NCBI GenBank assembly: GCA_018335675.1
Contig: JAGXRQ010000095.1
Coordinates: 16,046-80,045, forward strand
Source of the DNA: Bacteroidota bacterium
GTDB taxonomy: Bacteria > Bacteroidota > Bacteroidia > Bacteroidales > UBA7960
Length of the DNA stretch: 64,000 bases
Direction: 5' to 3'
The notes beneath the pieces are model-generated. The model was not told the origin of the DNA, searched no databases, and saw nothing but the letters and a program-made list of their open reading frames with translations. Position 1 is the stretch's first letter. Each line of letters begins with the position of its first letter. The translations under genes and the position numbers were made by a program. Positions 21,364 to 62,625 of this stretch are shown here, one piece after another.

Positions 21364-24006
21364 ATGAAAACACAAAAAAGCTCTATTTGGCTTGCTACTA
21401 TTCTTATTAGCATTTTTACATTTTCAAACACTTTTTCATCAAATTTAGAACCCCAAAAACTTACTGCTCCGAAAGATTTTTTCGGGTTTAATCCCGGCGC
21501 TGATAAAAAGCTTATAAGTTATGAGGAGCTTATTAATTATTTGTTTTTGCTGGAAAAGGAGTCACCAATGCTAAAAATGCATCATGCCGGCAACTCTCCA
21601 ATGGGCAAACCAATGTATATAACGTTCATTTCTGCTGCTGAAAACATTAATAATCTCAATAAATTACAGGAAATCAATCGTGAACTTGCATTAAACCCTA
21701 ATATCAGCGAAAATGAAAAAGCTAAAATGATTGAAGATGGGAACGTTTTCGTAATGGCAACTCTGTCAATGCATTCCAACGAGGTTGGCCCGTCTCAGGC
21801 TGCTCCTATAATGGCTTATGAACTTTTATTTGAAAGACAAGAAGAAGTTAAGGATTATCTCGAAAATGTAGTTTTGATGCTTATTCCTTGCCATAATCCT
21901 GATGGAATGGATATGACTGTAGAGCATTACAGAAAATATGTTGGAACTCCTTACGAAGGAAGTACCCTTCCGGGTGTTTATCATAAATATGTAGGGCATA
22001 ATAACAACAGGGACTTTGTTGCACTAACACAAGAAGACACAAAAGTAATTGCTGACATTTATAATATTCAATGGTATCCTCAGGTTTTTGTTGAAAAACA
22101 TCAGATGGGAATCACCGATCCTAGATATTTTGTTCCGCCTGCTCACGACCCTATTGCAGAAAATATAGATGAAGGAATCTGGAACTGGAATTGGGTATTT
22201 GGCTCAAATATGTCTAAATATATGACAAACAAAGGATTAACCGGAATAACCCAGCATTATCTCTTCGATGACTATTGGCCTGGATCTACTCAAACTTGTG
22301 CTTGGAAAAATGTTATTGGCATGCTAACAGAAGCTGCTAGTGTGCAATTGGCAACTCCTGTTTATGTTGAAAAAAGTGAAATGAGAGTTATTGGAAAAGG
22401 CCTTTCTGAATACAAGAAAAGTATTAACATGCCAATTCCGTGGCAAGGTGGATGGTGGAAATTGTCTGATATTGTAAGGTATGAAGTAGAATCTATTTTT
22501 TCTATGCTAAAAACATCATCACTATACAGAAAAGAAATATTAACATTTAGAAATGATTTATGTGTAAAAGAAGTAAATAAGGGCTATAATGAATCTCCCT
22601 ATTTCTACATTATACCTAAACAACAACACGATTATAGTGAAACACTAAACATGCTTATATTACTTGAAAGACACGGAATTAATATATATCAGCTTAAAGA
22701 AGACGCAGTTGTACAAGGAAGAAAATACTATGAGGGAGACTACATAATACCTCTATCACAGGCATACCGGCCATTTATCAAAGAAGTAATGGAGAAACAA
22801 GAATTCCCGGTAAGAAGATATACCCCTGGAGGCGAAATGATTAGACCATACGACATAACAAGTTGGTCGCTTCCGCTGCACAGAGGCATTGAAAGTCACG
22901 AAATTACACAACCTCAGCAATGGCTATACGAAAAATTTGTTCCAGTTAATATTACTGAAAAAACAAAAGAATCACCCAAACTACCATTTGGCTTTTTAGT
23001 TTATTGCGCAACTAATAACGACTCCTATAAAATTGCATTTCAGGCACTTGCAAAAAATATTGATGTTTTTAGAACAACTGATAATGCAACTATTAATGGA
23101 ACTTTCATTCCTTCAGGTAGTTTCATCATAGAAAAAACCAATAAAAATTCGAATCAAATTGAAATGATATCTGCATCGGCAAAGATTTATCCGATATCAT
23201 TCAAACAAAAACCTGAAATAAAAACAAATAAACTTGCACTTCCAAAAATTGCAATAACAGAATCATACTTTCATGATATGGATGCAGGATGGACAAGATT
23301 TTTGTTTGATCAATACGGAATACCTTTCACTGTTATAAGACCGTGCGAATTTGCAGGTAAAAATTTGATAAAACAATTTGATGTAATAATCTTTCCTGAC
23401 CAAAATAAAAATGCATTAATGCAGGGAAGATGGCAACGTGGTGAAAATGTTGTTATTCCTTTTTATCATCCAGACTTTGCAAAAGGAATGGAAAAAGCCG
23501 GATGGCAAGAAGTTTTAGAATTTATTGAGCAAGGAGGTATAGTAATTTCATGGGCACAGAGTACAGAATTATTTTTAGGACTTATGGAGCCCAAGACCGG
23601 CCAACCATATAACTTTCCTATTAGCAACATTGCGCAATCACTACAAGATCAAGGGTTTAAATGTCCGGGGTCATTACTTTCAGTTACTTTAAACACCAAG
23701 CACCCTATTAGCTGGGGTATGCCTGAGAAATTCGGCGTATTTCACAGGGAAAATAACGTATTTGCAACATCTATCCCAATTTTTGATATGGACAGAAGAG
23801 CAATTGCAACATTTACCGAAAAGCCTGAAATACTTAGCGGATATGCAGAAAAGATAGAATTGCTTGAAAACCAGCCTGCAGTAGTATGGCTTAAAAAAGG
23901 GAAAGGACAAGTAGTTTTGTTTTCATTTGCCCCAAATTTCAGAGGATCAACCCCTGTTACTAATAAATTGATTTTCAATTCAATACTGCTAATTCACTCA
24001 TTCTAA
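21364..24006 (+). CDS. M14-family zinc carboxypeptidase-like protein (large, secreted)
   Basis: 880 aa with a signal peptide. Contains HSNE (HxxE zinc site), HNPDG, NNNRDF and a downstream His (EKHQMG). Confidence 0.75.
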   Translation: MKTQKSSIWLATILISIFTFSNTFSSNLEPQKLTAPKDFFGFNPGADKKLISYEELINYLFLLEKESPMLKMHHAGNSPMGKPMYITFISAAENINNLNKLQEINRELALNPNISENEKAKMIEDGNVFVMATLSMHSNEVGPSQAAPIMAYELLFERQEEVKDYLENVVLMLIPCHNPDGMDMTVEHYRKYVGTPYEGSTLPGVYHKYVGHNNNRDFVALTQEDTKVIADIYNIQWYPQVFVEKHQMGITDPRYFVPPAHDPIAENIDEGIWNWNWVFGSNMSKYMTNKGLTGITQHYLFDDYWPGSTQTCAWKNVIGMLTEAASVQLATPVYVEKSEMRVIGKGLSEYKKSINMPIPWQGGWWKLSDIVRYEVESIFSMLKTSSLYRKEILTFRNDLCVKEVNKGYNESPYFYIIPKQQHDYSETLNMLILLERHGINIYQLKEDAVVQGRKYYEGDYIIPLSQAYRPFIKEVMEKQEFPVRRYTPGGEMIRPYDITSWSLPLHRGIESHEITQPQQWLYEKFVPVNITEKTKESPKLPFGFLVYCATNNDSYKIAFQALAKNIDVFRTTDNATINGTFIPSGSFIIEKTNKNSNQIEMISASAKIYPISFKQKPEIKTNKLALPKIAITESYFHDMDAGWTRFLFDQYGIPFTVIRPCEFAGKNLIKQFDVIIFPDQNKNALMQGRWQRGENVVIPFYHPDFAKGMEKAGWQEVLEFIEQGGIVISWAQSTELFLGLMEPKTGQPYNFPISNIAQSLQDQGFKCPGSLLSVTLNTKHPISWGMPEKFGVFHRENNVFATSIPIFDMDRRAIATFTEKPEILSGYAEKIELLENQPAVVWLKKGKGQVVLFSFAPNFRGSTPVTNKLIFNSILLIHSF

Positions 24007-27285: not shown

Positions 27286-30200
27286 ATGAATAAGAAAATC
27301 TACTTCATCACAGTTTTTGCACTAATTTTCTTTCTGCTTTTGTCAGAATATTCTTTTTCTCAACAATCAGAGGAAGGCTTTGGCATTTCTATTTCTGCTG
27401 ATAAAGTTTTTGACGACAGCGATTTAAGGGAAAGCCCCTCAAGAATACTAATTTGGGAAAATGATTTAATCAAATCGAATACCGGAGAGTATTTTTTTAT
27501 TACCAAAACTCCTATTGCTTATACATCGTTTGGTATTGGTTGGAAAGCGGACAGTGACAAATCTCCTGCCGGTCATTTTACGGTAAAATTCAGAGTAAGG
27601 CAAGAAAATGGAGAATGGTCTGATTATTATGAAGATGAGGCATATGTGCATCCTTCGGAAACACCTACCGAATTATATTTTACTAATTTGCTGTTCCCTC
27701 CCACCGAAGAAGCATATCACTACATAGAGTTTTCTATTTTAGCACCTGAAAAAGTTCATTTGCAAATGGTTAGGATGGATATTATTGATATAAGAGGAAC
27801 GGGAAAACCAGGACCTGCACCTGGAGATGAAAAAGCATATTACGAATCAGAAAAAAGCTGTCCGCCATTTCCTGCAATTATCACAAGAGCAGATTGGTGC
27901 GGTGGTTATACAGCATGTCATAACCCCACATATACACCAACATACATAAGTGCAACACATACTGTTTTGCATCATGGGGCATCTCCAGACACATACACTG
28001 ATGGACACGCAGTTGTAAGATCATATTGGAACTATCATGTTAATACATTAAAATGGGCAGACATAGGCTACAATTACCTTTTTGACAAATATGGAAACTT
28101 TTTTCAAGGCAGATTTAATCCAAATCTTCCAAATAGTGACGTAAGAGGCGCGCATGCCGGGAATTCAAATGGAGCATCAATAGGATTAAATTATCTAGGA
28201 AATTCTGATGTAACATTGCCAACAACTGCACAACTTAATAAAACTTATGAGTTTCTTGCATGGTGGTACGACAGAAAAGGATTCGACCCGACTTCATCAG
28301 CCACAATCGCGTTACAGAGCGGCGGGAGTGGCAGTGTTCCAAGAATATGCGGTCATAAAGATGTAAATATTGGCGGAACAGCTTGTCCGGGAAATGCCGC
28401 ATATGCGCAATTATCAAGCATCAGAACAAACACTAAATCCATTATCGATAACTGCAATAATAATGTTCCCACAAACTTGCAAAGAACATTACACGGATGC
28501 CCCAATAATCAGGTTACATTCAATTGGACAAATTCAGGAACAGGCTGGTATATTCAGGTTTCTACAGCATCAAACTATTCAAACCCATATTGGAAATGGG
28601 TGTCAGGACTTACTTCATATTTAGCACCTGGAGAGTTTGTTCTTCAATCTGACGGTGTTACTAATCTGGTTTTTCAGGAAGGAACAACATACTATTGGAG
28701 AATACACAATGGAAGTTCATTCACTAATGGACCGAGTTTCTCAATCCCCTATTGCAGCACAAACCCGCCAACCACATCCATTTCCGTAAGTTATGAGGGT
28801 GATTGGGTTACTGAAAACTTTACGGCTACTTTCAATGATGTTGCAAATCAAAGCGTTATTGCCAGAAGATTCTATCAAGTACTTGAGTATGATGGAACAT
28901 ACTGGGGCGCTAATCCAAATCGAGGCTTTTTTGGAGACAATTTTGAAACTTTAAACACATCATTGTGGACCACAGTTTCGGGAACATGGTCAGTATCTGG
29001 CAATCAGCTTAGACAAACAGATGCAAGCGTCAACAACACAAACATTTATGCTCCTCTTAATCAAATGCTTTCAAATAGATATATGTATCAATTTGTGGCA
29101 AAGGTTGAAGGCAGTGGAACAACCAGAAGATTCGGACTTCACTTTTTCTGCGACAATGCAAGCCTTAGCGAAAGAGGTAATTCATATTTTGTATTCTTTA
29201 GAGTGGACGACCAAAGCCTTCAGTTTTACAAAGTAACCAATAATACATTCTCTCTTGTAAAAACAATTAGTAATGTTACAACAACAGTTGGTCAGTGGTA
29301 TGATATTAAAGTAATTTATGATAGAATCACTGGGGAAATAATCGTTTATAGAGATGATGTTTTTTTAGGTTCCTGGACCGACTCATCGCCATATAGCACA
29401 AACGGAAATCATATCTCTTTCCGCACAGACAACAGTCAGCTATACATTAATGAAATCAAAGTATACAGGACAAGATTACCTGAAGCAACAATTTCAGTTG
29501 GTGCAGACAACTCTAATGATTTAAGAACGCAAAGTCCAAATCCAACAACTGCAGGCGGAAAGATTAAATCTATTGTAACTGACAACCTTGGAAATCTTTC
29601 TCAAATAGCTTATTATGATTTAAAAATTGACAGAACACCTCCCACAAATATTTCCTATGTATATGATGGTATTGGAAGTGATATTAGCCAAACGAATTCA
29701 ACTACGCAATTATCTGCCAATTGGGCTAATTCCTCAGATGTAAACTCAGGTATTAAAAAGTATTGGTATGCAATAGGTACATCCGCAGGAAATACAAATA
29801 TTGTAGGATGGACAGATAATGGGACTAACACTTCAGTTACTCACACCGGATTAACCTTAACCAACGGAACTACCTATTATTTTTCAGTGCGTTCAGAAAA
29901 TGGGGCCGGATTATTAAGTACAGTTGCCTCTTCTAACGGACAAACTGTAGTTGTGGGACCAACCAATTTGCAGCATACACTGCACGGTTGTCCGAATAAT
30001 AACGTAACATTTAGTTGGACAAACTCAGGCTCTGGATGGTATATACAAGTTTCTAAATTCTCAAATTTCTCCTCTCCTTATTGGAAGTGGGTTTCAGGAC
30101 TCACATCTTATACCGGACCGGCTGGATTTGTTCTTCAATCTGATGGAGTTACTCCTTTGCAATTTGAGGATGCAACTACTTATTACTGGAGGATTTATGG

Positions 30201-31710
30201 CAATGGAGCTTTCACGTCTTCTTTAAACTTTACAACTCCAACTTGTAATTGTACCCAAATTTCTGACTTCCCGTATTTCCAAAATTTCAACAACGGTGAA
30301 GGTCAATGTTGGTCTGTAGAGTCGGTTTCTGAAACTACCTGGACACCATTAACCGGATTTACTATTGGAGAAACTATCAATGTTAATCCTGTTAGCGGAT
30401 CGCACTTGTATAGGTGCCAATGGACTGCAACGGAAAATCAGAACGAATGGTTGATATCGCCTGTGTTTAATTTCACAAACCTAAGCTCTCCGGAAATAAG
30501 TTTCAAGTTTACAGGAAGTTATCATTGGTCGGTCATTAATCCGAATTGCGATTTGGATCTTATGATAAGAATAAATGCAGGAAGTTGGAATAAATTGTGG
30601 AATAACAAAGATCATTCAAATTTTACATCTAATGACATCAACTGGACATGGCTAAATGAGGTTGTTTCACTTAGCAGCTATGCAGGGCAAAACAACGTGC
30701 AACTTGCATTCAGATATACCGGATTCGACGGAGCTGCATTCGCTCTGGATGAGATAAAAGTTTCTAATATGACTATTCCGGGAGATGTAAACAACGATGG
30801 AAGTATTAATGTATTGGATATTGTTTGGCTTGTAAATCATCTAAATGGCTCTACTCCAACAGGTTTTAATTTTTCAGCAGCCGATGTAAATAATGATGGT
30901 TTAATTAATATTGCAGACCTTACAAATCTGATAAACATCATATTCAATGGTGCAAAGTTGAATGAAAATAAAGTTGATTCTGAACAACCACATCTTTATC
31001 TTGACGAAGATGGCCTTATAAGGTTTATCAGTGATGGGACAATTTTAGCTATACATTTTCAGCTCATTTGTGATGAATTGCAGAATATGGAAGTTGATCT
31101 TTTACTTCAAACAGGACACACTTTCGTATTCAACAATGTTACAGGATATGGATTATTGTACAGTATGAGCGGAAGTTTAATTCCCGAAGGTGAAATTGAC
31201 TTATTTCAAATAAGCGGAGTGGACTTTTCCGGTGTAAGTTGGGGAATGGCTCAGGCATCTAACCTGAATCATCAAGCAGTTGACATTATTACTCATTCAT
31301 TTTTCGACCCGGACGATGGTGATGAACCTGATGACGACGATGATGGTGATGACGGAGACGATGATGACGACGGAAATGATGACGGTGATGATGACGGCAG
31401 TGAAACATTCATTTCAGACAATTATGAAATAATAAGCGAAATACTCGTATATCCAAACCCAAGTACTGGTAATTTTTCAGTCTCTTTTAAAACAAATGAA
31501 GCTATTGTTGTTGAAATTATTATTTATGACGAAATCGGTAGAAGCATATACAGAAAAGAAGCCACTTTTAATCCCGGATATCATAGTATCAAATTCTCTA
31601 AGAATGACATACATTTCGGCAATAAGGCTATAATTCTCGTGAACATTTTTGATATTTTCAAATCTAACATACTAGGAAATTATCAAAGAATAGTTATTTT
31701 CGCAAATTGA
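27286..31710 (+). CDS. giant T9SS-secreted peptidoglycan amidase (PGRP/Amidase_2), with LamG-like, FN3, MAM-like (choice-of-anchor-J-like), dockerin-like, unassigned module, poly-Asp linker and T9SS CTD
   Basis: Signal peptide MNKKIYFITVF... (start moved to 27286). The amidase_2 core spans ~27877-28405 (HTVLHHGAS, WADIGYNYLFDKYGNFFQGR, GAHAGNSNGASIG, ICGHKDV..TACPG). Dockerin-like GDVNNDGSINVLD...ADVNNDGLINIADL at ~30781-30950. T9SS CTD (VYPNPSTGNFSVSF...) at ~31444-31707. Confidence 0.85.
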   Translation: MNKKIYFITVFALIFFLLLSEYSFSQQSEEGFGISISADKVFDDSDLRESPSRILIWENDLIKSNTGEYFFITKTPIAYTSFGIGWKADSDKSPAGHFTVKFRVRQENGEWSDYYEDEAYVHPSETPTELYFTNLLFPPTEEAYHYIEFSILAPEKVHLQMVRMDIIDIRGTGKPGPAPGDEKAYYESEKSCPPFPAIITRADWCGGYTACHNPTYTPTYISATHTVLHHGASPDTYTDGHAVVRSYWNYHVNTLKWADIGYNYLFDKYGNFFQGRFNPNLPNSDVRGAHAGNSNGASIGLNYLGNSDVTLPTTAQLNKTYEFLAWWYDRKGFDPTSSATIALQSGGSGSVPRICGHKDVNIGGTACPGNAAYAQLSSIRTNTKSIIDNCNNNVPTNLQRTLHGCPNNQVTFNWTNSGTGWYIQVSTASNYSNPYWKWVSGLTSYLAPGEFVLQSDGVTNLVFQEGTTYYWRIHNGSSFTNGPSFSIPYCSTNPPTTSISVSYEGDWVTENFTATFNDVANQSVIARRFYQVLEYDGTYWGANPNRGFFGDNFETLNTSLWTTVSGTWSVSGNQLRQTDASVNNTNIYAPLNQMLSNRYMYQFVAKVEGSGTTRRFGLHFFCDNASLSERGNSYFVFFRVDDQSLQFYKVTNNTFSLVKTISNVTTTVGQWYDIKVIYDRITGEIIVYRDDVFLGSWTDSSPYSTNGNHISFRTDNSQLYINEIKVYRTRLPEATISVGADNSNDLRTQSPNPTTAGGKIKSIVTDNLGNLSQIAYYDLKIDRTPPTNISYVYDGIGSDISQTNSTTQLSANWANSSDVNSGIKKYWYAIGTSAGNTNIVGWTDNGTNTSVTHTGLTLTNGTTYYFSVRSENGAGLLSTVASSNGQTVVVGPTNLQHTLHGCPNNNVTFSWTNSGSGWYIQVSKFSNFSSPYWKWVSGLTSYTGPAGFVLQSDGVTPLQFEDATTYYWRIYGNGAFTSSLNFTTPTCNCTQISDFPYFQNFNNGEGQCWSVESVSETTWTPLTGFTIGETINVNPVSGSHLYRCQWTATENQNEWLISPVFNFTNLSSPEISFKFTGSYHWSVINPNCDLDLMIRINAGSWNKLWNNKDHSNFTSNDINWTWLNEVVSLSSYAGQNNVQLAFRYTGFDGAAFALDEIKVSNMTIPGDVNNDGSINVLDIVWLVNHLNGSTPTGFNFSAADVNNDGLINIADLTNLINIIFNGAKLNENKVDSEQPHLYLDEDGLIRFISDGTILAIHFQLICDELQNMEVDLLLQTGHTFVFNNVTGYGLLYSMSGSLIPEGEIDLFQISGVDFSGVSWGMAQASNLNHQAVDIITHSFFDPDDGDEPDDDDDGDDGDDDDDGNDDGDDDGSETFISDNYEIISEILVYPNPSTGNFSVSFKTNEAIVVEIIIYDEIGRSIYRKEATFNPGYHSIKFSKNDIHFGNKAIILVNIFDIFKSNILGNYQRIVIFAN

Positions 31711-31785
31711 TTAATTATTAAAGATAAACTCGACCAAAATTATTAATTATTTCAAACCATTTAGTATTAACCAAAACCAAACAGA

Positions 31786-34700
31786 ATGAAAAAATTATTT
31801 TTACTTATTGTAGCGGCAATTTTTCTAAACACTTTAGTTATTGCCCAAATCAGTCAACCCGGCTCACCAAAAAGTTTTGAATATCTCAAAACAGGTGATG
31901 AGTTGTCTCAAGTTAAATTTGCTTTAATGCCATTTATAGATATTGAGGCATTGAAAGCAGAGGATTTAGAAATTGATGAATTAAAAGACAGACCTTGGAG
32001 GTTTGGACAAGTGCATCAGGTTTCATTAAACCCTAATAATTCAGGAACATGGGACATACTTGGAAACGGCACGAAAATATGGAGACTTGGGATAAATTGC
32101 GAGGGTGCGCTTTCTATCAACATATTGTTTGATATGTACAAGCTTCCTGCAGGAGCTCAGTTATTCGTATATTCTGCAGACAGAAAAGAGATATTAGGCG
32201 CTTTTACCAATATTAACAATCAGGAAGACAACCTATTTCCTGTGTCTTTCATTTTTTCAGATAATGTCATTGTAGAATATAATGAACCAAAAGGTGTTGA
32301 GTTTGAAGGAAAGTTGAGTATTTCTGAAGTTACACATGGATATAGAACACTTGCCGATTATGTAAAAGCTTTTGGTCAAGCAGGATCCTGCAATGTAAAC
32401 GTAGCTTGTCCTCAAGGAGCAGCATGGGGAAATCAAATAAATTCAGTGCTTATGCTAGCATCATCTAATGGTGTGAGTAATGGATTCTGTTCAGGAGCAC
32501 TTATAAATAATACAAATAACGATGGCACCCCTTATTTTTTATCAGCAAACCATTGCTATTCAGCTCCCGGTTCAGTTTTTTATATCTTCAACTGGCAAAG
32601 TGCAACCTGCTCTAATCCAGGCAGTTCACCTTCATTCCAATCAGTAGCAGGAGCTACAGACAGAGCAAGAAATGCTGCTTCCGATTTTTGGCTAGTACAA
32701 TTAAATACGACTCCCCCTCAAAGCTACAATCCTTATTATTCTGGTTGGAACAGAACAACTGATGCCACTATGTCCGGTACTATATGGGGTATTCACCACC
32801 CAAGAGGAGACATTAAAAAAATAAGTTGGGCAACTGGCGGTGCAACTACTTCTAATTATTTAGGTGCGACTGGTAGTGGAACTACACATTGGAGAGTTGG
32901 CTCTTGGAGCGATGGCACAACTACTGAAGGTGGTTCATCAGGCTCTCCACTATTTGACCCACAAGGAAGAATAATGGGACAGTTACATGGAGGATATGCT
33001 GCTTGCGGAAATACTGACCCTGACTGGTACGGAAAACTTGGAGTTTCATGGACAGGTGGCGGCACAAATGCAACACGCTTAAGCAACTGGCTGGATCCAT
33101 CTAGTACTGGCGTAGTTGTTATTGATGGATATGATCCATTTGGTATTACATATACTACAGATGCTCAGATGCAGAGCATTACACATCCGGTTGCAAGTTA
33201 TAATTCGTTGGAAACTATAACTCCTACTGTTGTTGTAAGAAATAATGGAACTGCTAATATTACAACAGGAACTGTTAGCTATACTCTAAACGGCGGAACT
33301 GCAATTACAACTAGCTTAGGTGCACTTGCAAGCGGTGCAACTACAAATATTACATTCCCAGCAATCACACTTACTGCCGGCAACCAGGTATTTGTAGCTA
33401 CTGTTACTGTTGCCGGTGACGAAAATCCTGGAAACAATTCATTAACTAGAAACTTTTCTGTAGTTGATTGCGGCACTCCTGTTTCATTACCATTTAATCA
33501 AGGATTTAATAGCGGATCTATCCCAAGCTGTTGGACTCAAGAATATGTATCTGCTCATAATCACAACTGGCAATTTGGTGCCGGAAACGGTGGCAGCAAC
33601 CCTGCATCTGCTTTTGAGGGTAGTGGTAATGCTTATTTTAAAATTACTGGCACACCAAGAGGAAGAACCACAAAACTTGTTACTCCAAAACTGGGTCTGG
33701 CAGATTTTGCTGATGTAGTATTAAGCTTCCGTTTATATAACCAGTTTTGGAGTCCTGACCAAGATGTTTTACGAGTATATTACAAAAATTCATCTGCAGG
33801 TTCATGGGTGCTTCTTAATACATATAATACAAGTGTAACTGCTTGGACTCCAATAACAATAAATATTCCTAATGGTGTATTAACCAACGACTTCTATATT
33901 GCATTTGAAGGTGAAGCTAACTGGGGTTATGGCGTTTGTATCGATGCTGTCAGTATTACAGGAGAAGCTGCTTCAGGCGTATTAAATCCAACAGCATTTA
34001 CTGGTACAGGAGTAAGTGAATCTCAAATAAATTTGGGTTGGACTAAAAATGCATCTAATAATAACGTAATGGTAGCTGTAAACACTACTAATACATTTGG
34101 TACTCCAAGTGGCGCTTACACTGTTGGACAAGCAATCGCCGGAGGTGGAACTATTATTTACAGAGCTGATGGAACTTCATTCAACCACACTAGTCTTAAC
34201 CCTTCAACAACCTATTATTATAAAGCGTGGTCGTATAATGGAACTAATCAGTATTCTTCTGGAGTTACTGCTAATGCGACAACACAGTGCGGAATTATCA
34301 ACACATTCCCTTATAATCAAAACTTTGATGGTGGATCGGGGTTATGCTGGACAGTTCAATCTAACTCCACAACTACTTGGGCACCAATAACAACTTTTAC
34401 AATTGGAGGCACTACAATAATTAATCCGGTTAGTGGATCTCATTTTTACAGATGTAACTGGCATGGTACTGACAGTCAAAATGAATGGCTATTAACGCCG
34501 ACCTTTAACTTCACTGGCGTTAATCCACAAATGAAGTTTTGGTTTAATGGAAGTTATTACTGGTCGGTAGCTGATTATGACAACTGCGATTTAGACGTAA
34601 TGGTCAGAGTAAATGGTGGCGCATGGACCAAGATATGGGGAGAAACAGACCATCCTAATTTTACATCAACCGATGTAAACTGGGTATGGCTTGAAACTAC

Positions 34701-35661
34701 TTTAAGCCTATCTGCATATGCAGGCCAAAGTAATGTGCAATTTGCATTCAGATATACGGGAACTGATGGAGCTGCTTTCTCAGTAGATAATATAACAATT
34801 GAACACGCGGGTGGTATACTTGGCGATGTAAACGGCGACGGATTTGTTAATGTTGGGGATGTTGTTTGGATTGTTAGTCATTTGAATGGCAGCACTCCTG
34901 GAGGCTTCATTATGGCAAATGCTGACGTTAATGGAGACGGCTCTGTTAATCTTGCCGACCTTACTGCAATGATAAATATTATTCTGGGCTTAAAAATAGA
35001 ATCTTCTTCAATAAATTCTTTGCCGGGAGATATTTATATTAATGAAAATGGTAAGATTACATTTAAAAGTGATGGAAGTATTACTGCCTTGCAGTTTGTA
35101 ATTTCAGGTGACAATATGCAGGATGCAAGCATAACTGAAATCATAGACAATTTTACTATTTCTGTGATAAACGATGGCAACTCATTACATGGAATAATAT
35201 ACAATATGGAACTTGACACTTTCAATAATACTGAAATTGAATTATTCAGCATCCATAATGTAGATTTATTTAATCTGACATGGGAAATGGCTGTTGCGGC
35301 AAATACTGAACATGAATTAGTTACGGTAAACACTCACGACCTGAATTCACCTGTAACTGATGGCAACATAACTTCGGATGTATTCTCTGCAAAAGTATTT
35401 CCTAATCCAAGTACCGGAATATTCAATATCAAACTTAATATTCCGGATCAGTCATTTATCAATATTCGTATAATTGACGAAAAAGGAAGAGTTGTTTATT
35501 CAAAACAAAACATAGAATATAATCAAGGAATGCATATTATTTCATTCGATCAGTTGAACACTAAGATGAGTGGAGTTTATTTCTTGCAAGTTACAGGTTT
35601 TGATTCTGCAAAGCAAAATACTATTTTCAAACATGAAGAACGTATTATAATTGCGAGATAA
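31786..35661 (+). CDS. giant T9SS-secreted S1 serine endopeptidase (lysyl-endopeptidase-like), with CARDB-like, MAM-like, FN3, MAM-like, dockerin-like, unassigned module and T9SS CTD
   Basis: Signal peptide present. Catalytic triad context: CSGALINN..PYFLSANHC (His), SDFWLVQL (Asp) and EGGSSGSPLFD (Ser). Dockerin-like GDVNGDGFVNVGD...ADVNGDGSVNLADL at ~34822-34990. CTD VFPNPSTGIFNIKL at ~35395-35658. Confidence 0.85.
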   Translation: MKKLFLLIVAAIFLNTLVIAQISQPGSPKSFEYLKTGDELSQVKFALMPFIDIEALKAEDLEIDELKDRPWRFGQVHQVSLNPNNSGTWDILGNGTKIWRLGINCEGALSINILFDMYKLPAGAQLFVYSADRKEILGAFTNINNQEDNLFPVSFIFSDNVIVEYNEPKGVEFEGKLSISEVTHGYRTLADYVKAFGQAGSCNVNVACPQGAAWGNQINSVLMLASSNGVSNGFCSGALINNTNNDGTPYFLSANHCYSAPGSVFYIFNWQSATCSNPGSSPSFQSVAGATDRARNAASDFWLVQLNTTPPQSYNPYYSGWNRTTDATMSGTIWGIHHPRGDIKKISWATGGATTSNYLGATGSGTTHWRVGSWSDGTTTEGGSSGSPLFDPQGRIMGQLHGGYAACGNTDPDWYGKLGVSWTGGGTNATRLSNWLDPSSTGVVVIDGYDPFGITYTTDAQMQSITHPVASYNSLETITPTVVVRNNGTANITTGTVSYTLNGGTAITTSLGALASGATTNITFPAITLTAGNQVFVATVTVAGDENPGNNSLTRNFSVVDCGTPVSLPFNQGFNSGSIPSCWTQEYVSAHNHNWQFGAGNGGSNPASAFEGSGNAYFKITGTPRGRTTKLVTPKLGLADFADVVLSFRLYNQFWSPDQDVLRVYYKNSSAGSWVLLNTYNTSVTAWTPITINIPNGVLTNDFYIAFEGEANWGYGVCIDAVSITGEAASGVLNPTAFTGTGVSESQINLGWTKNASNNNVMVAVNTTNTFGTPSGAYTVGQAIAGGGTIIYRADGTSFNHTSLNPSTTYYYKAWSYNGTNQYSSGVTANATTQCGIINTFPYNQNFDGGSGLCWTVQSNSTTTWAPITTFTIGGTTIINPVSGSHFYRCNWHGTDSQNEWLLTPTFNFTGVNPQMKFWFNGSYYWSVADYDNCDLDVMVRVNGGAWTKIWGETDHPNFTSTDVNWVWLETTLSLSAYAGQSNVQFAFRYTGTDGAAFSVDNITIEHAGGILGDVNGDGFVNVGDVVWIVSHLNGSTPGGFIMANADVNGDGSVNLADLTAMINIILGLKIESSSINSLPGDIYINENGKITFKSDGSITALQFVISGDNMQDASITEIIDNFTISVINDGNSLHGIIYNMELDTFNNTEIELFSIHNVDLFNLTWEMAVAANTEHELVTVNTHDLNSPVTDGNITSDVFSAKVFPNPSTGIFNIKLNIPDQSFINIRIIDEKGRVVYSKQNIEYNQGMHIISFDQLNTKMSGVYFLQVTGFDSAKQNTIFKHEERIIIAR

Positions 35662-35680
35662 TCTGACTCATTATTTTAAA

Positions 35681-35712
35681 AAAAGGGCAATTTATAATTG
35701 CCCTTTTTTTTT
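35681..35712 (+). terminator. rho-independent terminator
   Basis: AAGGGCAATT-TAT-AATTGCCCTT hairpin followed by a T9 run. Confidence 0.65.
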
Positions 35713-35847
35713 AACATTTTTATGATTTTTTTGTTGATATAATTGCAATTATCTGAATCAGTTATAATTAATATTATTACATTAGCCAATTAATATTTTT
35801 TATAAAATTCCTATAAATTCTCAAAGTATAAAACAACTCTTACTAAG

Positions 35848-38800
35848 ATGAAGAATCTAATTAGAACCTTTACATCTATTGCAATTATTATTGCTTTCAG
35901 CTTTAATGCAAAAAGCCAGAATATTAAAATTGACACTTCAGAATTATCTTATGCAAAAGAATTAAACTCTGATCAAATTAGAGCAATTGAAGAACAACAG
36001 CAACTCGAAAAAACTTACCAAGTTGTTCGTGGTGAGAGACCACCGATTAATATAGAAGAAGTTAAAGAAGAAGCTTTCGAAAAAGGCAGAATAGCAATCA
36101 AAATTCAGCCATATTTAGCAGAAAAATTAGCAGAAAAGTTTATTTACCCTGATAAAACCGGTTTTGTTAAAACAGGAGTAAAGAATCTAGATTACTTGAA
36201 TGAAGTTTTAAATGTTAAAGCATACAATCCTCTGTTTATCAATATCTATAACACAACAGAGAAAACAATTTTGAACAGAGAAAAGCATAAAGCTTGGGGA
36301 TTTCATTTATGGTTCGAGATTGAATTAGACGAAAAAACCGACATTAAACAAGTCGTAAAATTATTTTCAGAATTGCCGGAAATTGCAATTGCAGAACCTT
36401 TTTATAAGAAAGAATTGCTTGGTATTAGTGAAAGGGACAATAATGAAATTACTAGAGATAAATGGACTCCTAACGACCCACAACTTGGCAATCAGTGGCA
36501 TTATAACAATACAGGACAACAAGGCGGAACTGCCGGATGTGATATTAGTTTGTTTTCAGCTTGGAATATTGAGAAAGGACATACTTCAGTTATTGTAAGT
36601 ATTCAAGACGGTGGAATTCAGATCGACCATGTTGATTTGGCGGCAAATATGTGGTCAGGAATTGGATATAACTTCGTTAACAATTCTCCAACAATTACAG
36701 TTCACAATCATGGAGTTCACGTTGCAGGAACTGTTGCTGCGGTGAATAATAACAACATTGGTGTTGCCGGAGTTGCCGGAGGTTCGGGCTCAGGCGATGG
36801 CATCAGACTAATGTCAAGTCAGGTTTTTACAACCACAGGTTCGGGAGGATTTCACCTCGCTCCTATTCATGCAGCCGACAATGGAGCCGCTATTTCGCAA
36901 AACAGTTGGGGTTACACAAGTGCAAATGTATTTGAACAAAATGTATTAGATGCTATTGACTATTTCAATGCAAATGGTGGTGGTTTGGTATTAAATGGTG
37001 GAATAACCATTTTTGCAGCCGGAAACAGCAATGCAACAGGAAACTGGTACCCGGGATGTTACTCAGGCACTTTTGCAATTGCAGCAACAAACAATCAGGA
37101 TGTGAAATCATGGTATTCAAACTATGGTGCTTGGATAGACATTTCAGCCCCGGGAGGAGAAACGAATACTGTTACTCAAAGAGGAGTATTAAGCTCAATA
37201 TCAACAAACAGCTACGCTTATTATCAAGGAACTTCAATGGCTTGCCCTCACGCATCAGGTGTAGCAGCACTTATTGTTTCATACGCACATAGAAATGGAA
37301 TAATGCTAGACAATATTGATATTGCAGATATTCTAAGAAACTCTACTGATAATCATTATGGTGTAAATGCCGGGTTTGTTGGAAATCTTGGAACAGGCAG
37401 ACTTAATGCATTTAAAGCGCTTCAGGAAACTCAAAGCTATATATCTGGTGTATTAAATCCTAAAAACATTACTGCTGTGGCTAATAGCACAAGTGAAATT
37501 AATATTAGCTGGACAAAAAATGATAATGCAAACGATGTTATGCTCGTTTGGTCTGCTGATGGAACATTTGGAACACCAAATGAGGGTTCATCATACAGCA
37601 TTGGAAATACTATTCCGGGCGGAGGTATTGTTTTATATAGAGGTGCTGCAACAACATTCAACCATGTAGGCCTTGCTGCCGCTACAAAATATTATTACAG
37701 AGTTTTTTCTTATAATGCTTCAAATGAGTATTCCTCTGGAAGAGGAACAAGCACAGCTACTTGGTGCGATATATTAACAAGCTTACCAGTATTAGAAAAC
37801 TTTAATACATCAAGCACCTTACCTATTTGCTGGGAAATTATTGATAACCAAGGAAATGGACAGGTTTGGCAAATTGGAACTCACACAAGTGGACTTAGTG
37901 GAACAGGCGGTAATTACGCATTTCTAAACAGCGATGGGTATGGTTCAGGAAGTTCTCAAAACTCTGACCTTGTTACTCCTATAATGGATTTATCAGCATA
38001 TACTAATGTAAGACTTGAATTCAAACATTATTTCAGAGAGTATACGGGTTCATCAGGAAAACTTTTTTATTCAATAAACGGCGGTGCATCATGGGTTCAA
38101 ATTCAGCAATGGTCAGTAACAACAGCAAATCCTGTATCTTTTAGCCAGGTAATTTCCGCAGTTGAAGGCCAAGCTGCTGTTAGATTTAAGTGGAATTATA
38201 CAGGAAGTTGGGGTTATTATTGGGATATTGATGATATTGCAATTACTGGTGATGTTTCTACAGGTGTTGCTAACCCTAACTCTTTTACGGCAACTCCGGC
38301 AAATAGTACACAAATAAATCTTGCATGGAATAAAAACACCGACAATAACAATGTTATGATTGCTGTGAATACATCTAATACTTTTGGCACTCCATCAGGA
38401 AACTATAGTGCAGGGCAACCCATTTCCGGAGGTGGAACAGTTATTTATAACTCAAGTGGAACTTCATTTAATCATTCCGGTTTAAATCCATCAACGACAT
38501 ATTATTATAAGGCCTGGTCGTATAATAGTGAAACAATATACTCCGGTGGGGTTACAGCACAAGCAAACACTCTTTGTGGAACCATAAGCACATTGCCATT
38601 CACAGAGGGATTTGAAGCTGCTGGTATTCCATCTTGCTGGACTCAAGAATATGTTTCAACACATAATTTAAATTGGTCTTTTGGAGCCGGAAATGGAGGC
38701 TCAAATCCATCAACCGCTTTCCAAGGAAGCAGAAATGCGTATATAAAAATTAATGGAACTCCGAGAGGGCAATCCACTAAACTAATAACACCACCTCTAA

Positions 38801-39270
38801 ATTTATCTTCATATACTGATGTGCAGTTAACATTTTACTATTTTAATCAGTTTTGGAGTCCGGATCAGGATGTCTTGAGAGTTTATTATAAAAACTCTGC
38901 ATCTGGTTCCTGGGTGCTATTAAACACTTATAATGCAAACGTCAATTCCTGGACTTCTGTTACTATAAATATTCCAAATGGTGTATTAAGCAATGATTTT
39001 TACATTGCTTTTGAAGGAGAAGCAAACTGGGGATATGGTGTTTGTATTGACGCCGTTACAATTAATGGTGTTAGTTCATTAGTTATTGCTGGTGATGTAA
39101 ACGGCGACGGATTTGTAAACGTTGGCGATATTGTTTGGATGGTTAGCCACCTGAATGGAAGCACACCTGCAGGATTTATTATGGCAAATGCTGACGTAAA
39201 TCTAAATGGAAGTGTGAATATTGCAGATTTATCTGCACTTATTAATCTGATTTTGAATGTTATAAAATAA
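35848..39270 (+). CDS. secreted S8 subtilisin-family protease, with FN3, MAM-like, FN3, MAM-like and a terminal dockerin-like module (no T9SS CTD)
   Basis: Signal peptide present. S8 motifs are IQDGGI (Asp), HGVHVAGTVAA (His), AAGNS (Asn) and GTSMACPHASGVAAL (Ser). The protein ends ...GDVNGDGFVNVGD..ADVNLNGSVNIADLSALINLILNVIK*, and the terminator follows within ~25 nt. Confidence 0.85.
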   Translation: MKNLIRTFTSIAIIIAFSFNAKSQNIKIDTSELSYAKELNSDQIRAIEEQQQLEKTYQVVRGERPPINIEEVKEEAFEKGRIAIKIQPYLAEKLAEKFIYPDKTGFVKTGVKNLDYLNEVLNVKAYNPLFINIYNTTEKTILNREKHKAWGFHLWFEIELDEKTDIKQVVKLFSELPEIAIAEPFYKKELLGISERDNNEITRDKWTPNDPQLGNQWHYNNTGQQGGTAGCDISLFSAWNIEKGHTSVIVSIQDGGIQIDHVDLAANMWSGIGYNFVNNSPTITVHNHGVHVAGTVAAVNNNNIGVAGVAGGSGSGDGIRLMSSQVFTTTGSGGFHLAPIHAADNGAAISQNSWGYTSANVFEQNVLDAIDYFNANGGGLVLNGGITIFAAGNSNATGNWYPGCYSGTFAIAATNNQDVKSWYSNYGAWIDISAPGGETNTVTQRGVLSSISTNSYAYYQGTSMACPHASGVAALIVSYAHRNGIMLDNIDIADILRNSTDNHYGVNAGFVGNLGTGRLNAFKALQETQSYISGVLNPKNITAVANSTSEINISWTKNDNANDVMLVWSADGTFGTPNEGSSYSIGNTIPGGGIVLYRGAATTFNHVGLAAATKYYYRVFSYNASNEYSSGRGTSTATWCDILTSLPVLENFNTSSTLPICWEIIDNQGNGQVWQIGTHTSGLSGTGGNYAFLNSDGYGSGSSQNSDLVTPIMDLSAYTNVRLEFKHYFREYTGSSGKLFYSINGGASWVQIQQWSVTTANPVSFSQVISAVEGQAAVRFKWNYTGSWGYYWDIDDIAITGDVSTGVANPNSFTATPANSTQINLAWNKNTDNNNVMIAVNTSNTFGTPSGNYSAGQPISGGGTVIYNSSGTSFNHSGLNPSTTYYYKAWSYNSETIYSGGVTAQANTLCGTISTLPFTEGFEAAGIPSCWTQEYVSTHNLNWSFGAGNGGSNPSTAFQGSRNAYIKINGTPRGQSTKLITPPLNLSSYTDVQLTFYYFNQFWSPDQDVLRVYYKNSASGSWVLLNTYNANVNSWTSVTINIPNGVLSNDFYIAFEGEANWGYGVCIDAVTINGVSSLVIAGDVNGDGFVNVGDIVWMVSHLNGSTPAGFIMANADVNLNGSVNIADLSALINLILNVIK

Positions 39271-43264: not shown

Positions 43265-45442
43265 TTAATAACCACCAGCACGTTTTCGCACAAACCATTC
43301 AACAGATAAAAACAATAAAAGAACAAAAAACAACCATCTCCAGTTTATCAAGTCAGAATATTGCTTATGACTGTATAATATAGCAGCTATATCCTTTCTT
43401 CCCTTAATATCATTAACAAGTTCTTCAAGACCTCCGGGAAAATACATTTTTGCGTCAGTTTCTAAAGCCATTCTGAACAACAAATTGTGGTCTGCAAGCA
43501 AATTGCCAGCTTCAAAATTTAATTCAGCAATTGTAATGACACCAGTAACCTGAAATATCTCATTATTAACTATCGTAGTAGCCTTATATGAGTAATTACC
43601 CGGTGGAAACAATCCGATATTCAAATTATATGAATTAGAACTTCTGCTAAATTCATAATTAAATTCTGTTTCTTCTTCATTTTTCAAAACCAAACTAACC
43701 GAAGGTTCATTAATAAGCTCATAACTAGCATTATACAATTCAGCTTCAAACACAATAGCTTCATTTTCAAAAATAAGATTTCTGGTATTGATTCTAAAAA
43801 GGTTCTTATCTTCTTTTAGAGCAAGATATTGAGATATTTTTGCAATAATCTCATTAAAAAAGTTGTGGTTACCTGAACGTTGAAAGTTATGCAATTTCCA
43901 TCTCCAAAGACCTTCGCCAAAAATGAATCCATATTTCTTATTAGACTGGTCGTTGAACATTATTAAAGGATCTTGAGTTTCAACACTTCCTATTTTTTGA
44001 AACAAAAATATGTTTGATGATGGTGATAAAAGATAATTCGCAAATGCTGTGCTAAGCGGAGGCATATAATTTACAAGGTTCTCAATCTCTTTTCCTACCG
44101 TAAACAATGTAAAGTTCTTATTTACAACACCTTGAGCGTTATTAAATTGACTAGATCTCGCCCTAACATTTACTCCAAGATTAAGACTGTTTATTATGGT
44201 ATAATTTGTTTGTCCGCCAAATACAAATAATACAGGGATATCGCTTTTAAATATTTCTGAAAGAACTCTATGATTAGGTAATCTGTATGATGGAAGCTGA
44301 TGGAGAATTATTAAATTGTAAGCCTGAACATTCCCATTGAAACCTATCAAAGGGAAGTATTCGACTTCATAGTTATCATTATCATCAAGGGCTTGCTTTA
44401 TGGCTCCAATATCGGGGTGAGGCGCATCTGCAAGAATCAAAATCTTTTGCCTACTGTCAATTACATCTATGTAGAATCGCCTAACATTGTTTTCAATATT
44501 AAACTCATCCGCAACAGCATCAACAATTACATCATATCGTTGAGTGCCAACCGAAACAGCCTCAAGTTCAACAAGTTCAGTGTGAAATTCATGCTCAGAA
44601 GTAAACTTTAGCACCTTACTAAATACTTCTGCTCCATCCTTTTTGATTTGCAACCTTGTACTTAAGCTGCTGCATTTTCTAGCTTCTACAACAATTTCAA
44701 CGGGAAAATAATTTCCTAGATATGTAATCGCATTATATGAAATTTTATTAATAAGCACATCCCTTCGTGCTATTGTATCTCCAAGTGCAATTGTATAAGT
44801 AGGAAACTTCATTTCTGTTGCAGCATAAACAGGATTAAGTCCTTGATTATAAATACCATCAGAAGCGATTATAACAGCTCCAACATTTCTATTAGAATAC
44901 AAATCAGTTATCCCTTTGAATATCAGCGACATATCGGTTAGCTTATCATTAAAACTAATCGAATCTTGTCTTCTGAACCCGTCACCGAAAGAAAACAAAT
45001 GAAGATCATATTCATTTTTCAGTAGCTTAATAACGGATTCTTTTTCAGATAAATAATTATTCAGCTCATTTGGTTCTTTATCATAAGCTAATTTTATAGA
45101 CTCTGAATTATCCTGAATAAAAACAATAATAGGGTCTTCATCATTTGTTGTAAAACGCTCAATTACAGGACCTAAAATCAGAACACTTATAACAAATACA
45201 GTTACAAACCTAAATACAACAAGCAACCATTTTTGCCAAAACAATATTTCCAGGCTATTATCTCGCCAGTACAACAATGCTGTAATCAGCAAAGCCACAG
45301 CAAGACAAAACAATATAAACCAGCTAGGGTAATGGAATAAGATATTAGACAAAACAAATCCTTTCTTTAAAAAACATACGCAAAGATAAAACGATTGCGG
45401 CAAGTTTACGCTAATAAAAAAGCTGAAATATTTGAACAACAA
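43265..45442 (-). CDS. membrane-anchored vWA-like domain protein, function unknown
   Basis: 725-aa ORF with two N-terminal TM helices. IVFIQDNSESI resembles a DxSxS MIDAS motif. A C-terminal TM helix is present (WLFFVLLLFLSVEWFV). The track start is a TTG, and an internal TTG (MSNILFHYPSW) is an alternative. Confidence 0.5.
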   Translation of the reverse strand: MLFKYFSFFISVNLPQSFYLCVCFLKKGFVLSNILFHYPSWFILFCLAVALLITALLYWRDNSLEILFWQKWLLVVFRFVTVFVISVLILGPVIERFTTNDEDPIIVFIQDNSESIKLAYDKEPNELNNYLSEKESVIKLLKNEYDLHLFSFGDGFRRQDSISFNDKLTDMSLIFKGITDLYSNRNVGAVIIASDGIYNQGLNPVYAATEMKFPTYTIALGDTIARRDVLINKISYNAITYLGNYFPVEIVVEARKCSSLSTRLQIKKDGAEVFSKVLKFTSEHEFHTELVELEAVSVGTQRYDVIVDAVADEFNIENNVRRFYIDVIDSRQKILILADAPHPDIGAIKQALDDNDNYEVEYFPLIGFNGNVQAYNLIILHQLPSYRLPNHRVLSEIFKSDIPVLFVFGGQTNYTIINSLNLGVNVRARSSQFNNAQGVVNKNFTLFTVGKEIENLVNYMPPLSTAFANYLLSPSSNIFLFQKIGSVETQDPLIMFNDQSNKKYGFIFGEGLWRWKLHNFQRSGNHNFFNEIIAKISQYLALKEDKNLFRINTRNLIFENEAIVFEAELYNASYELINEPSVSLVLKNEEETEFNYEFSRSSNSYNLNIGLFPPGNYSYKATTIVNNEIFQVTGVITIAELNFEAGNLLADHNLLFRMALETDAKMYFPGGLEELVNDIKGRKDIAAILYSHKQYSDLINWRWLFFVLLLFLSVEWFVRKRAGGY

Positions 45443-56792: not shown

Positions 56793-56921
56793 CATAGAGC
56801 TTTAAAACATATTAAAAATAGATGTTTTGAAGTGTTTTTTATCACAAGAAAAACACCAACAAACTTCTATGAAGTAGTTTGATTATGGTTATTTTATTTT
56901 TCCAATTATGTCAAAGAACTT
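56793..56921 (-). promoter_or_regulatory. putative CRISPR leader (cas2 stop to first repeat)
   Basis: 129-bp AT-rich non-coding stretch adjacent to the non-degenerate end of the array. No clean TAnnTTTG was found, so read-through from cas2 is possible. Confidence 0.5.
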
Positions 56922-57260: not shown

Positions 57261-57266
57261 TTTACA

Positions 57267-58157: not shown

Positions 58158-58168
58158 AAATTCATTAT

Positions 58169-62504: not shown

Positions 62505-62625
62505 ATACCTTTTACCATTATCCCAAAACTCAAAACCCAAAACCTAAAACCCAAAACCCCAACCTAAAACCTAATCCCCAATCTTACCAATCTTACAAAT
62601 CTTCAATCTTACCAATCAAAAAAAA
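62505..62625. repeat. heptamer tandem array (CCCAAAA / CCTAAAA units changing stepwise into CAATCTT units)
   Basis: cccaaaa ctcaaaa cccaaaa cctaaaa cccaaaa ccccaa cctaaaa cctaatc cccaatc ttaccaatc ttacaaatc ttcaatc ttaccaatc. Confidence 0.9.

Follow-up and report, generated by a model that had tools for sequence, protein, structure and literature searches.

A predicted cohesin-like module fused behind the dockerins of secreted hydrolases in a Bacteroidota genome

What do dockerins bind in the Bacteroidota, whose genomes are routinely reported without cohesins even when dockerins are present (PMC5831590, PMC10266427)? The question is raised by three consecutive genes in a 64,000-nucleotide stretch of contig JAGXRQ010000095.1 (positions 16,046 to 80,045; assembly GCA_018335675.1, a Bacteroidota bacterium of the order Bacteroidales), which we will call the window. 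The genes encode a predicted secreted amidase of the peptidoglycan-recognition-protein (PGRP) type (P1), an S1 protease that resembles the lysyl endopeptidase Lys-C (P2), and an S8 subtilase (P3), and all three carry a dockerin (Table 1). A preliminary description of the locus had proposed that they form an extracellular machine for lysing bacteria or digesting proteinaceous prey, possibly assembled on the cell surface. Taken as a whole, that interpretation is partly supported. In particular, P1 and P2 carry, between the dockerin and a sorting domain for secretion by the type IX system (T9SS), a module of ~113 amino acids (about 110-117 residues), here termed X, with a predicted fold like that of cohesins. 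It is this cryptic cohesin-like candidate partner, together with the puzzle of how P3 is exported, rather than the presence of dockerins on lytic enzymes, that makes the locus of interest.

Dockerins, module X and sorting domains

By profile scores, motifs and a structural model, P1, P2 and P3 each carry a true type I dockerin, so that the two-repeat, dockerin-like module that had been described for all three is borne out. The scores against Dockerin_1 (PF00404, gathering cut-off 22.9 bits) are about twice the cut-off or more (E-values of 4e-11 to 3e-14), and two calcium loops of the form DxNxDGxxNxxD can be seen in each protein (loop 2 of P3 has N at position 5). In an AlphaFold model of P2, the dockerin consists of three helices, and it superimposes on Doc0917 of Clostridium acetobutylicum (6kgc_B, 6kge_B, and 6kgf_D) with a template modeling (TM) score, TMt, of 0.88-0.94, a root-mean-square deviation (rmsd) of 0.8-1.4 Å, and 42-44% identity. 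The dockerins of P1, P2 and P3 are unusually alike, with 62-78% identity to each other, whereas identities in the family described below have a median of 45%, with the 95th percentile at 62%.

P1 consists of a signal peptide, an N-terminal domain of no recognized type, the PGRP domain, FN3-like, LamG-like and choice-of-anchor J domains, the dockerin, X, an acidic linker, and the T9SS C-terminal domain (CTD). In P2, the catalytic head is followed by CARDB, MAM, FN3-like and choice-of-anchor J domains and then by the dockerin, X, and CTD. The C-terminal halves of the proteins are paralogous (P1 and P2 are 37% identical over 660 amino acids and P2 and P3 are 37% identical over 591 amino acids). 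The preliminary description had all three proteins sharing FN3 and MAM-like modules. This holds for choice-of-anchor J, which is found in all three, and for MAM in P2 and P3, but FN3 is clear only in P3: it is weak in P1, and in P2 it is suggested by homology only.

To find relatives of X, we used a profile of five X segments in an exhaustive search of 1.84 billion representative proteins, which gave 151 proteins with E ≤ 1e-3, or 105 when the threshold is set to 1e-10. (The exhaustive search was needed: when the dockerin and X of P2 were used in a word-indexed search, the matches were all short dockerin proteins, and even the query protein was not among them.) When the family was annotated with local hidden Markov models (HMMs) for the dockerin, X, and the CTD, 132 of ~149 X-containing proteins had the order dockerin-X-CTD. 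X is mostly separated from the dockerin by 4-11 residues (median, 7; 137 pairs), and the CTD from X by ~13 residues. Of 51 full-length members scanned with Pfam, 48 have both Dockerin_1 and Por_Secre_tail. These 51 proteins match 63 Pfam families, and Cohesin is absent from the 25 that recur most often. The N-terminal parts are diverse (S8, C25 gingipain-like and trypsin-like peptidases, Cleaved_Adhesin, PKD, Flg_new_2, and chitobiase C-terminal domains). The members that have been named are proteins from metagenome-assembled genomes (MAGs) of Bacteroidales or Bacteroidota. Between P1 and P2, identity is just 30% in X, as compared to 61% in the dockerin.

The predicted structure of X is a compact β-sandwich. 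The AlphaFold2 model of the dockerin and X of P2 (from an alignment of 43 sequences) has three helices followed by nine strands, with a predicted local distance difference test score (pLDDT) of 92.9 and a predicted TM score (pTM) of 0.88. For X of P1 alone, the pLDDT is 95.3 and the pTM is 0.86, and across the models X has nine or ten strands. When we compared these models to the PDB with Foldseek, ranks 1-8 for the P2 model were cohesins, including non-cellulosomal ones from Clostridium perfringens glycosidases and from Archaeoglobus, and ranks 1-14 for X of P1 were all cohesins, of types I, II, and III (TMq of 0.48-0.64). Over these ranks, the probability was 1.00 and the TMq for X alone was 0.46-0.66, and the non-cellulosomal cohesins 2jh2, 2vo8, and 2xdh were among the matches. 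So, in its modeled structure, X is cohesin-like in fold, and by sequence it lies outside the cohesin family. Also, because the pTM of the two-module model is as high as that of X alone, the prediction implies that the dockerin and X hold a fixed placement relative to each other. We considered whether X might be a carbohydrate binder of the CBM2 type (CBM, carbohydrate-binding module). CBM2 and YcnI-type sandwiches do appear among the lower-ranked matches of the P2 model, but cohesins rank above CBMs in both fold searches and there is no CBM in the top 14 for X of P1, so we consider this identity unlikely.

The preliminary description spoke of a T9SS organism, and the three proteins differ in their T9SS sorting domains. 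P2 has a significant type A CTD (Table 1). In P1, the CTD is divergent and borderline: besides its scores against Por_Secre_tail, it reaches 15.9 bits against TIGR04183 (cut-off 23) and 29 bits against the CTD HMM of the local family. P3 has neither a CTD nor X by Pfam or by the local HMMs, and its chain stops a few residues past the last dockerin helix. All three proteins have hydrophobic N-termini that, by eye, are typical of signal peptides. No T9SS component was recognized among the proteins of the window.

A side observation concerns the acidic linker of P1 (amino acids 1351-1381, 31312..31404, forward strand), which separates X from the CTD and whose 31 residues are almost all Asp or Gly. 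P2 has no comparable linker.

The dockerin and X also occur apart. S8 proteases that end in a dockerin and lack X and the CTD recur beyond P3: we found P0296 (60% identity to P3, with its end at the same residue), P0359 (31 contigs, up to 79 kb long), and P0381. (P0395 resembles P0359 with X and a CTD appended.) P0147, on the other hand, has no dockerin and is made up of a signal peptide, two X modules, and a CTD; P0275 is another X-X-CTD protein; and P0252 and P0284 are X-CTD proteins without a dockerin. P0147 and an ortholog of P2 (86% identity) are in the same ENA assembly, a link that is at the level of the assembly only. In another Bacteroidales MAG, a dockerin-only S8 gene adjoins a gene for a 2157-amino-acid dockerin-X-CTD protein, and a second dockerin-only gene lies nearby. 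We also asked if P3 might be a recent truncation, and rejected this because P0296, P0359, and P0381 end likewise.

Scanning metagenomes with P0147 gave no match, and scanning them with the alignment of X gave 10 loci, with the window's own sample not among them. Two further observations concern other loci. First, a dockerin-X-CTD protein of 1826 amino acids with PKD and Cleaved_Adhesin domains (P0416/P0150; locus L020, 7043-12523, and locus L010, 1153-6654) corresponds to MBS4012330.1, which NCBI assigns to "Bacteroidetes bacterium." As this accession is only 1735 away from MBS4014065-67, which are P1 to P3, the MAG of the window may encode further members of the family. Second, in Bacteroidales loci, small dockerin proteins with the Fibrobacter paralogous domain "Fib_succ_major" (P0126 and P0130; L006, 147-1097) lie beside dockerin-X-CTD genes.

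A possible surface assembly and its alternatives

How might these parts work together? We propose, with about an even chance of being right, that the three proteins form a surface-bound hydrolase assembly in which P1 and P2 are anchored by way of the T9SS, dockerins pair with X, and P3 is recruited. P1 and P2 would be exported by Sec and would then cross the outer membrane by the T9SS, using their CTDs. They would probably stay attached to the cell surface, as T9SS type A cargo with a CTD ends up there (PMC5445135). The dockerin and the adjacent X would interact, whether inside a single chain or swapped between chains, so that the pair would act as a membrane-proximal docking platform upstream of the CTD. 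P3 would be recruited by the X module of either P1 or P2, or else by anchor proteins with X alone that are encoded elsewhere. The assembly would then degrade exogenous peptidoglycan and protein, from microbial necromass or from prey cells, for uptake.

The evidence that the dockerin binds X is indirect: it is the near-obligate fusion of the two and the pTM of the two-module model. The unpaired forms, with only a dockerin or only X, suggest that the interaction may serve for recruitment, and the dockerin subtype that P1, P2, and P3 share also suggests that they belong to one assembly. The earlier idea of assembly at the surface is strengthened by the architecture itself, as P1 and P2 carry the putative cohesin-like X after the dockerin, while P3 lacks a T9SS signal and ends in a dockerin that stands alone.

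Several observations weigh against the surface assembly. First, the case that X is a cohesin is a structural one. X has no match in Pfam or NCBIfam; its profile found no cohesin among the sequences of the PDB, with a single chance match at E = 1.1; and when the TM score of the fold matches is normalized to the target, that is, to the cohesin, it is just 0.34-0.57. X is also 20-50 residues shorter than the solved cohesins (a cohesin is typically ~135-170 residues). Second, the short and fixed linker argues for a permanently closed single-chain unit, which would leave no free X for P3. Third, the genomic evidence for recruitment is sparse: there is no X-only scaffold protein within the window, and a dockerin-only gene lies beside a dockerin-X-CTD gene in just two of the ~12 loci that we examined. 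Finally, we know of no route across the outer membrane for a protein without a T9SS signal.

To account for the export of P3, a bolder version of the surface assembly would have X be the missing, cryptic cohesin of the orphan dockerins of Bacteroidales. P3-like enzymes would bind X in the periplasm and ride through the T9SS in a folded state ("piggy-back"), which would yield a bacteriolytic and proteolytic complex displayed on the surface. We consider this version to be improbable as it stands.

An alternative that we think somewhat unlikely, but that must be taken seriously, is that the dockerin and X make up a closed, calcium-stabilized, rigid spacer before the CTD, which recruits nothing, much as there is an Ig-like domain ahead of the CTD of gingipains. 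The proteins would then act singly, and the lone dockerin of P3 would be a leftover or would have an unrelated role in binding calcium. Such a spacer would fit the very short linker (a median of 7 residues), the high pTM of the two modules together, the fused order in 132 of ~149 members, and the lack of a scaffold protein in the window, as well as the greater divergence of X than of the dockerin between P1 and P2. However, it does not explain why dockerin-terminal proteins without X or a CTD are conserved (P3, P0296, P0359 with its 31 contigs, and P0381), nor does it explain P0147, with its signal peptide, two X modules, and CTD. These lone dockerins and lone X modules count against a spacer because half of the closed unit would be exposed.

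It is less probable still, and in our view quite unlikely, that the three dockerins bind a classical scaffoldin that is encoded elsewhere in the genome and that X is an unrelated β-sandwich, which might bind carbohydrate or peptidoglycan, for example. There is a precedent in a related phylum with T9SS: in Ca. Stygibacter, dockerin-bearing S8 and C25 peptidases occur along with a 3755-amino-acid cohesin scaffoldin that has a CTD (PMC8542988). The CBM2 and YcnI-type sandwiches among the lower-ranked fold matches of P2 would also fit. On the other hand, X seldom occurs without a fused dockerin, both models of X match cohesins better than CBMs, the dockerins of Bacteroidales are reported in surveys without cohesins that Pfam could detect (PMC10266427), and no open reading frame (ORF) of at least 120 amino acids in the window has a match to Pfam's Cohesin. 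Lastly, it is very improbable that P1, P2, and P3 are coincidental neighbors, that is, independent exoenzymes that obtained the same C-terminal cassette by recent duplication of modules and have no joint function: although their C-terminal halves are paralogous (37% identity), a terminator splits P2 from P3, and the flanking genes are housekeeping genes, the order of the three genes is kept in a relative at 82-86% identity and the cassette has been maintained over ~150 diverged clusters.

If the pairing of the dockerin with X is real, then the orphan dockerins of Bacteroidales gain a candidate partner. Assembly by cohesin and dockerin is regarded mainly as an invention of the Firmicutes for breaking down plant cell walls, and modular enzyme assembly would extend to peptidases and a peptidoglycan amidase that are anchored at the outer membrane. 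The pairing would also raise the question of the route by which proteins that lack a T9SS signal come to the surface, and it would supply a compact (~180 amino acids), self-contained docking unit for display on the surface of Gram-negative hosts. If the pairing is purely intramolecular, then the finding shrinks to a new structural module that precedes the CTD of ordinary exoenzymes.

Catalytic heads and comparison to known systems

The three heads look catalytically competent from their motifs, and each is of the type that had been claimed for it. When amino acids 196-386 of P1 are compared to PDB sequences with phmmer, 25 distinct PGRP sequences are matched (best E = 1.6e-14, to peptidoglycan-recognition proteins of animals). 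The motifs VLHH, NYH, GHKDV, and TACPG of P1 align with IHH, NYH, GHRDV, and TACPG of 4zxm; we take these to be the His/His/Cys zinc ligands and the catalytic Tyr that separate amidase-active PGRPs from those that only recognize peptidoglycan (as in T7 lysozyme and PGRP-LB). So, the assignment of this head to PGRP/Amidase_2 was right, with the zinc-ligand residues in place in the alignment. A scan of the N-terminus of P1 against Pfam and NCBIfam with hmmscan did not find Amidase_2, even at E ≤ 1, but unlike hmmscan, the precomputed domain table of the sequence collection assigns PF01510 (Amidase_2) to P1. The miss may be due to a filter or to the version of the model.

The head of P2 spans residues 1-262 of the mature Lys-C and Achromobacter protease I (E = 5e-56 to 4nsy and E = 1.7e-48 to 1arb). 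It aligns with them at the triad of His57, Asp113, and Ser194 and at Asp225 of the S1 pocket, which determines specificity (motifs ANHC, ASDF, GSSGSP, and DWYG). The homology is thus over the whole length of the enzyme and confirms a Lys-C-like S1 protease. The head of P3 matches thermitase and AK.1 protease (E = 1e-28) and contains the motifs QDGG, HGVHVAG, and GTSMACPH, and together with the scores for Peptidase_S8 and S8_N in Table 1, this agrees with its description as a subtilisin.

What might these enzymes do outside of the cell? An amidase that is outside of the outer membrane has, by the general topology of the envelope, no access to the wall of its own cell. It would act on foreign peptidoglycan only, and therefore the trio plausibly digests bacterial wall and protein material. 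This makes a bacteriolytic machine plausible, but we can only infer such a role, because both protease families are common among the exoproteases of Bacteroidota. Specifically, the S1-MAM-CTD and S8-CTD families have 3914 and 5763 matches in Bacteroidota, mostly without dockerins, and they look like general exoproteases. A dockerin is present in 4 of the 120 best homologs of P2 (of 3914) and in 7 of the 120 best homologs of P3 (of 5763), so within the parent enzyme families the cassette is a minority trait.

Dockerins on peptidases in an organism with T9SS had been contrasted with those of Firmicutes cellulosomes, and here the preliminary description is not borne out as it stood, as there are precedents (PMC6487960, PMC8542988, PMC10266427). 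Dockerins beyond cellulosomes, on peptidases and in Bacteroidetes, have been documented (PMC6487960; see also the survey of Peer et al. in 2009, cited there and in PMC8542988), and single-cell genomes of Bacteroidales contain dockerins without Pfam-detectable cohesins (PMC10266427), even as, according to some genome papers on Bacteroidetes, the genomes of the phylum have neither cohesins nor dockerins (PMC5831590). By contrast, the dockerin-X-CTD cassette appears to be undescribed: we found no description of a dockerin, a cohesin-like module, and a T9SS CTD in this arrangement in open-access full texts, which is an absence of evidence from the open-access corpus only. To our knowledge, a fixed dockerin-cohesin-CTD cassette has not been described. 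The survey literature, including that of Peer et al. in 2009, is said to hold single proteins with both cohesin and dockerin modules. Also, our searches found no characterized homologous cluster with a different role.

One of the closest known systems is that of Ca. Stygibacter (Cloacimonadota), for which a cellulosome-like complex was proposed, with degradation of polypeptides as its inferred function (PMC8542988). As at our locus, S8 (and C25) peptidases with a signal peptide and a C-terminal dockerin occur along with a cohesin protein that is anchored by a T9SS CTD. However, in Ca. Stygibacter the cohesins are of the Pfam type and lie in tandem, with CBMs, on a separate scaffoldin, whereas here a single cryptic X is fused behind the protein's own dockerin, and the set includes a peptidoglycan amidase.

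The clostridial cellulosomes (CohA2-Doc0917, 6kgc; OlpC-Doc435, 4dh2) share with our proteins the type I dockerin with two calcium loops (42-44% identity and ~1 Å rmsd to Doc0917), and their cohesins, which are nine-stranded sandwiches, are the best fold matches of X. They differ in that they belong to cells that are not Gram-negative, with anchoring by SLH domains or sortase instead of a T9SS CTD, and in that their cargo is glycoside hydrolases rather than peptidases and an amidase. Furthermore, X lies on the enzyme itself, 7 residues past the dockerin, with no tandem scaffoldin, and X is shorter than the clostridial cohesins and has no sequence similarity to them. The non-cellulosomal cohesins (2jh2, 2vo8, and 2w1n, from toxin complexes of GH84 and GH33 enzymes of C. 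perfringens, and 2xdh from Archaeoglobus fulgidus) are among the best structural matches of X and are like it in being found on secreted hydrolases that are not cellulolytic, but they can be detected by sequence and their proteins lack a T9SS signal.

Two other comparisons are to individual enzymes. The gingipains are likewise large, multi-domain T9SS proteases with a β-sandwich just before a cleavable CTD (PMC5445135), and C25 heads are also found on dockerin-X-CTD proteins. However, gingipains have no dockerin, their pre-CTD domain is not cohesin-like, and they form complexes via adhesin domains. The lytic enzymes of Lysobacter and Achromobacter (Lys-C, 4nsy, and Achromobacter protease I, 1arb) are full-length homologs of the head of P2, which has kept Asp225, and the organisms that they come from are bacteriolytic. 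But those enzymes are small and freely secreted, while the head of P2 is part of a 1291-amino-acid protein that is predicted to be anchored at the surface, and the S1-MAM-CTD homologs of P2 are widespread in Bacteroidales that are not predatory.

The locus and the rest of the window

The window is a chromosomal stretch with a low GC content (34%), and its sequence is identical to that of a metagenome contig from JGI (3300001813). As had been claimed, P1, P2, and P3 are consecutive ORFs on the same strand. The ORF of P1 from 27262 encodes 1482 amino acids; we use the MNKK start at 27286, as NCBI does. NCBI labels P1 only as "hypothetical protein," P2 as "T9SS type A sorting domain-containing protein," and P3 as "S8 family serine peptidase."

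Table 1. Positions in the window of P1, P2, P3, their predicted domains, and the terminator between P2 and P3.
Feature	Position	Strand	Basis
P1, 1474-aa secreted PGRP-type amidase	27286..31710	+	ORF; NCBI MBS4014065.1
P1 PGRP / Amidase_2-type N-acetylmuramoyl-L-alanine amidase domain, aa 196-386	27847..28419	+	phmmer vs PDB
P1 choice-of-anchor J (MAM-like)	30274..30762	+	NF038128, 34.4 bits (cut-off 30)
P1 type I dockerin	30778..30954	+	PF00404, 48.6 bits; local dockerin HMM, 87 bits
P1 module X, predicted compact cohesin-like β-sandwich	30976..31317	+	family profile; AlphaFold2; fold search
P1 T9SS type A C-terminal sorting domain, divergent	31447..31707	+	Por_Secre_tail, 22-26.8 bits (cut-off 27)
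P2, 1291-aa Lys-C-like S1 protease	31786..35661	+	ORF; Pfam; NCBI MBS4014066.1
P2 lysyl-endopeptidase catalytic domain, aa 197-450, after a ~176-aa pro-region	32374..33135	+	matches to 4nsy and 1arb
P2 MAM domain	33532..33963	+	PF00629, 36.3 bits
P2 choice-of-anchor J	34312..34800	+	NF038128, 53.9 bits
P2 type I dockerin	34819..34986	+	PF00404, 53.4 bits
P2 module X, predicted cohesin-like	35002..35352	+	family profile; AlphaFold2; fold search
P2 T9SS type A C-terminal sorting domain	35395..35658	+	PF18962, 35.6 bits (cut-off 27); TIGR04183, 33.9 bits (cut-off 23)
Strong intrinsic terminator between P2 and P3, GGGCAATT-tat-AATTGCCC then T9	35685..35712	+	read from sequence
P3, 1140-aa S8 subtilase, dockerin at end, without X, without T9SS CTD	35848..39270	+	ORF; Pfam; local HMMs; NCBI MBS4014067.1
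P3 S8_N pro-region	36085..36516	+	PF16361, 73.9 bits
P3 subtilase catalytic domain	36586..37356	+	PF00082, 112.7 bits (cut-off 21.8)
P3 choice-of-anchor J	37792..38244	+	NF038128, 41.8 bits
P3 MAM domain	38638..39066	+	PF00629, 39.1 bits
P3 C-terminal type I dockerin	39088..39255	+	PF00404, 43.4 bits; 78% identical to P2 dockerin

The gap between P1 and P2 is 75 nt and contains no hairpin, and the gap between P2 and P3 is 186 nt. Because a strong intrinsic terminator sits in the latter, P1, P2, and P3 are probably not a single operon. (A scanner for consensus promoters and terminators missed this terminator, and the sites that it reported were no more frequent than in shuffled sequence.) The gene downstream of P3 is convergent and 58 nt away. 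The genes that flank the trio encode TrkH, a GNAT acetyltransferase, a class III aminotransferase, MgsA, an M48 peptidase, and FloA/NfeD, which are housekeeping functions.

A scan with P1 of the contigs of GTDB species representatives gave a sole close relative, an uncultured Bacteroidales MAG (82% identity); the second match, to an Elusimicrobia MAG, involved only FN3 and is unrelated. The order P1-P2-P3 is kept in the sister MAG at 82-86% identity, and the sister contig stops within the ortholog of P3.

Elsewhere in the window, three genes upstream of the trio, there is an M14 carboxypeptidase-like protein of 880 amino acids (21364-24006), in which the local HMMs found no dockerin, X, or CTD. 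Two large ORFs, both on the reverse strand, have no match in Pfam or NCBIfam (48856-53562, 1568 amino acids, and 43265-45442, 725 amino acids). A 155-amino-acid protein with an ORF6N / phage Rha-type domain (20193-20660) lies in a gene-poor stretch (~18.8-21.3 kb) and may be the remnant of a mobile element. Finally, the window contains a type II CRISPR-Cas locus on the reverse strand (55835-62218), with Cas9 at 58169-62218 (TIGR01865, 462 bits) and Cas1 at 57267-58157. Its CRISPR array (55835-56826) has ~15 units with a period of 66 and the 36-nt repeat GTTGTTAATTATTCCATTTTTAAATCAAACCACAAC, and immediately upstream of cas9 there are short tandem repeats, namely CCCAAAA repeated seven times and related sequences (62522-62617).

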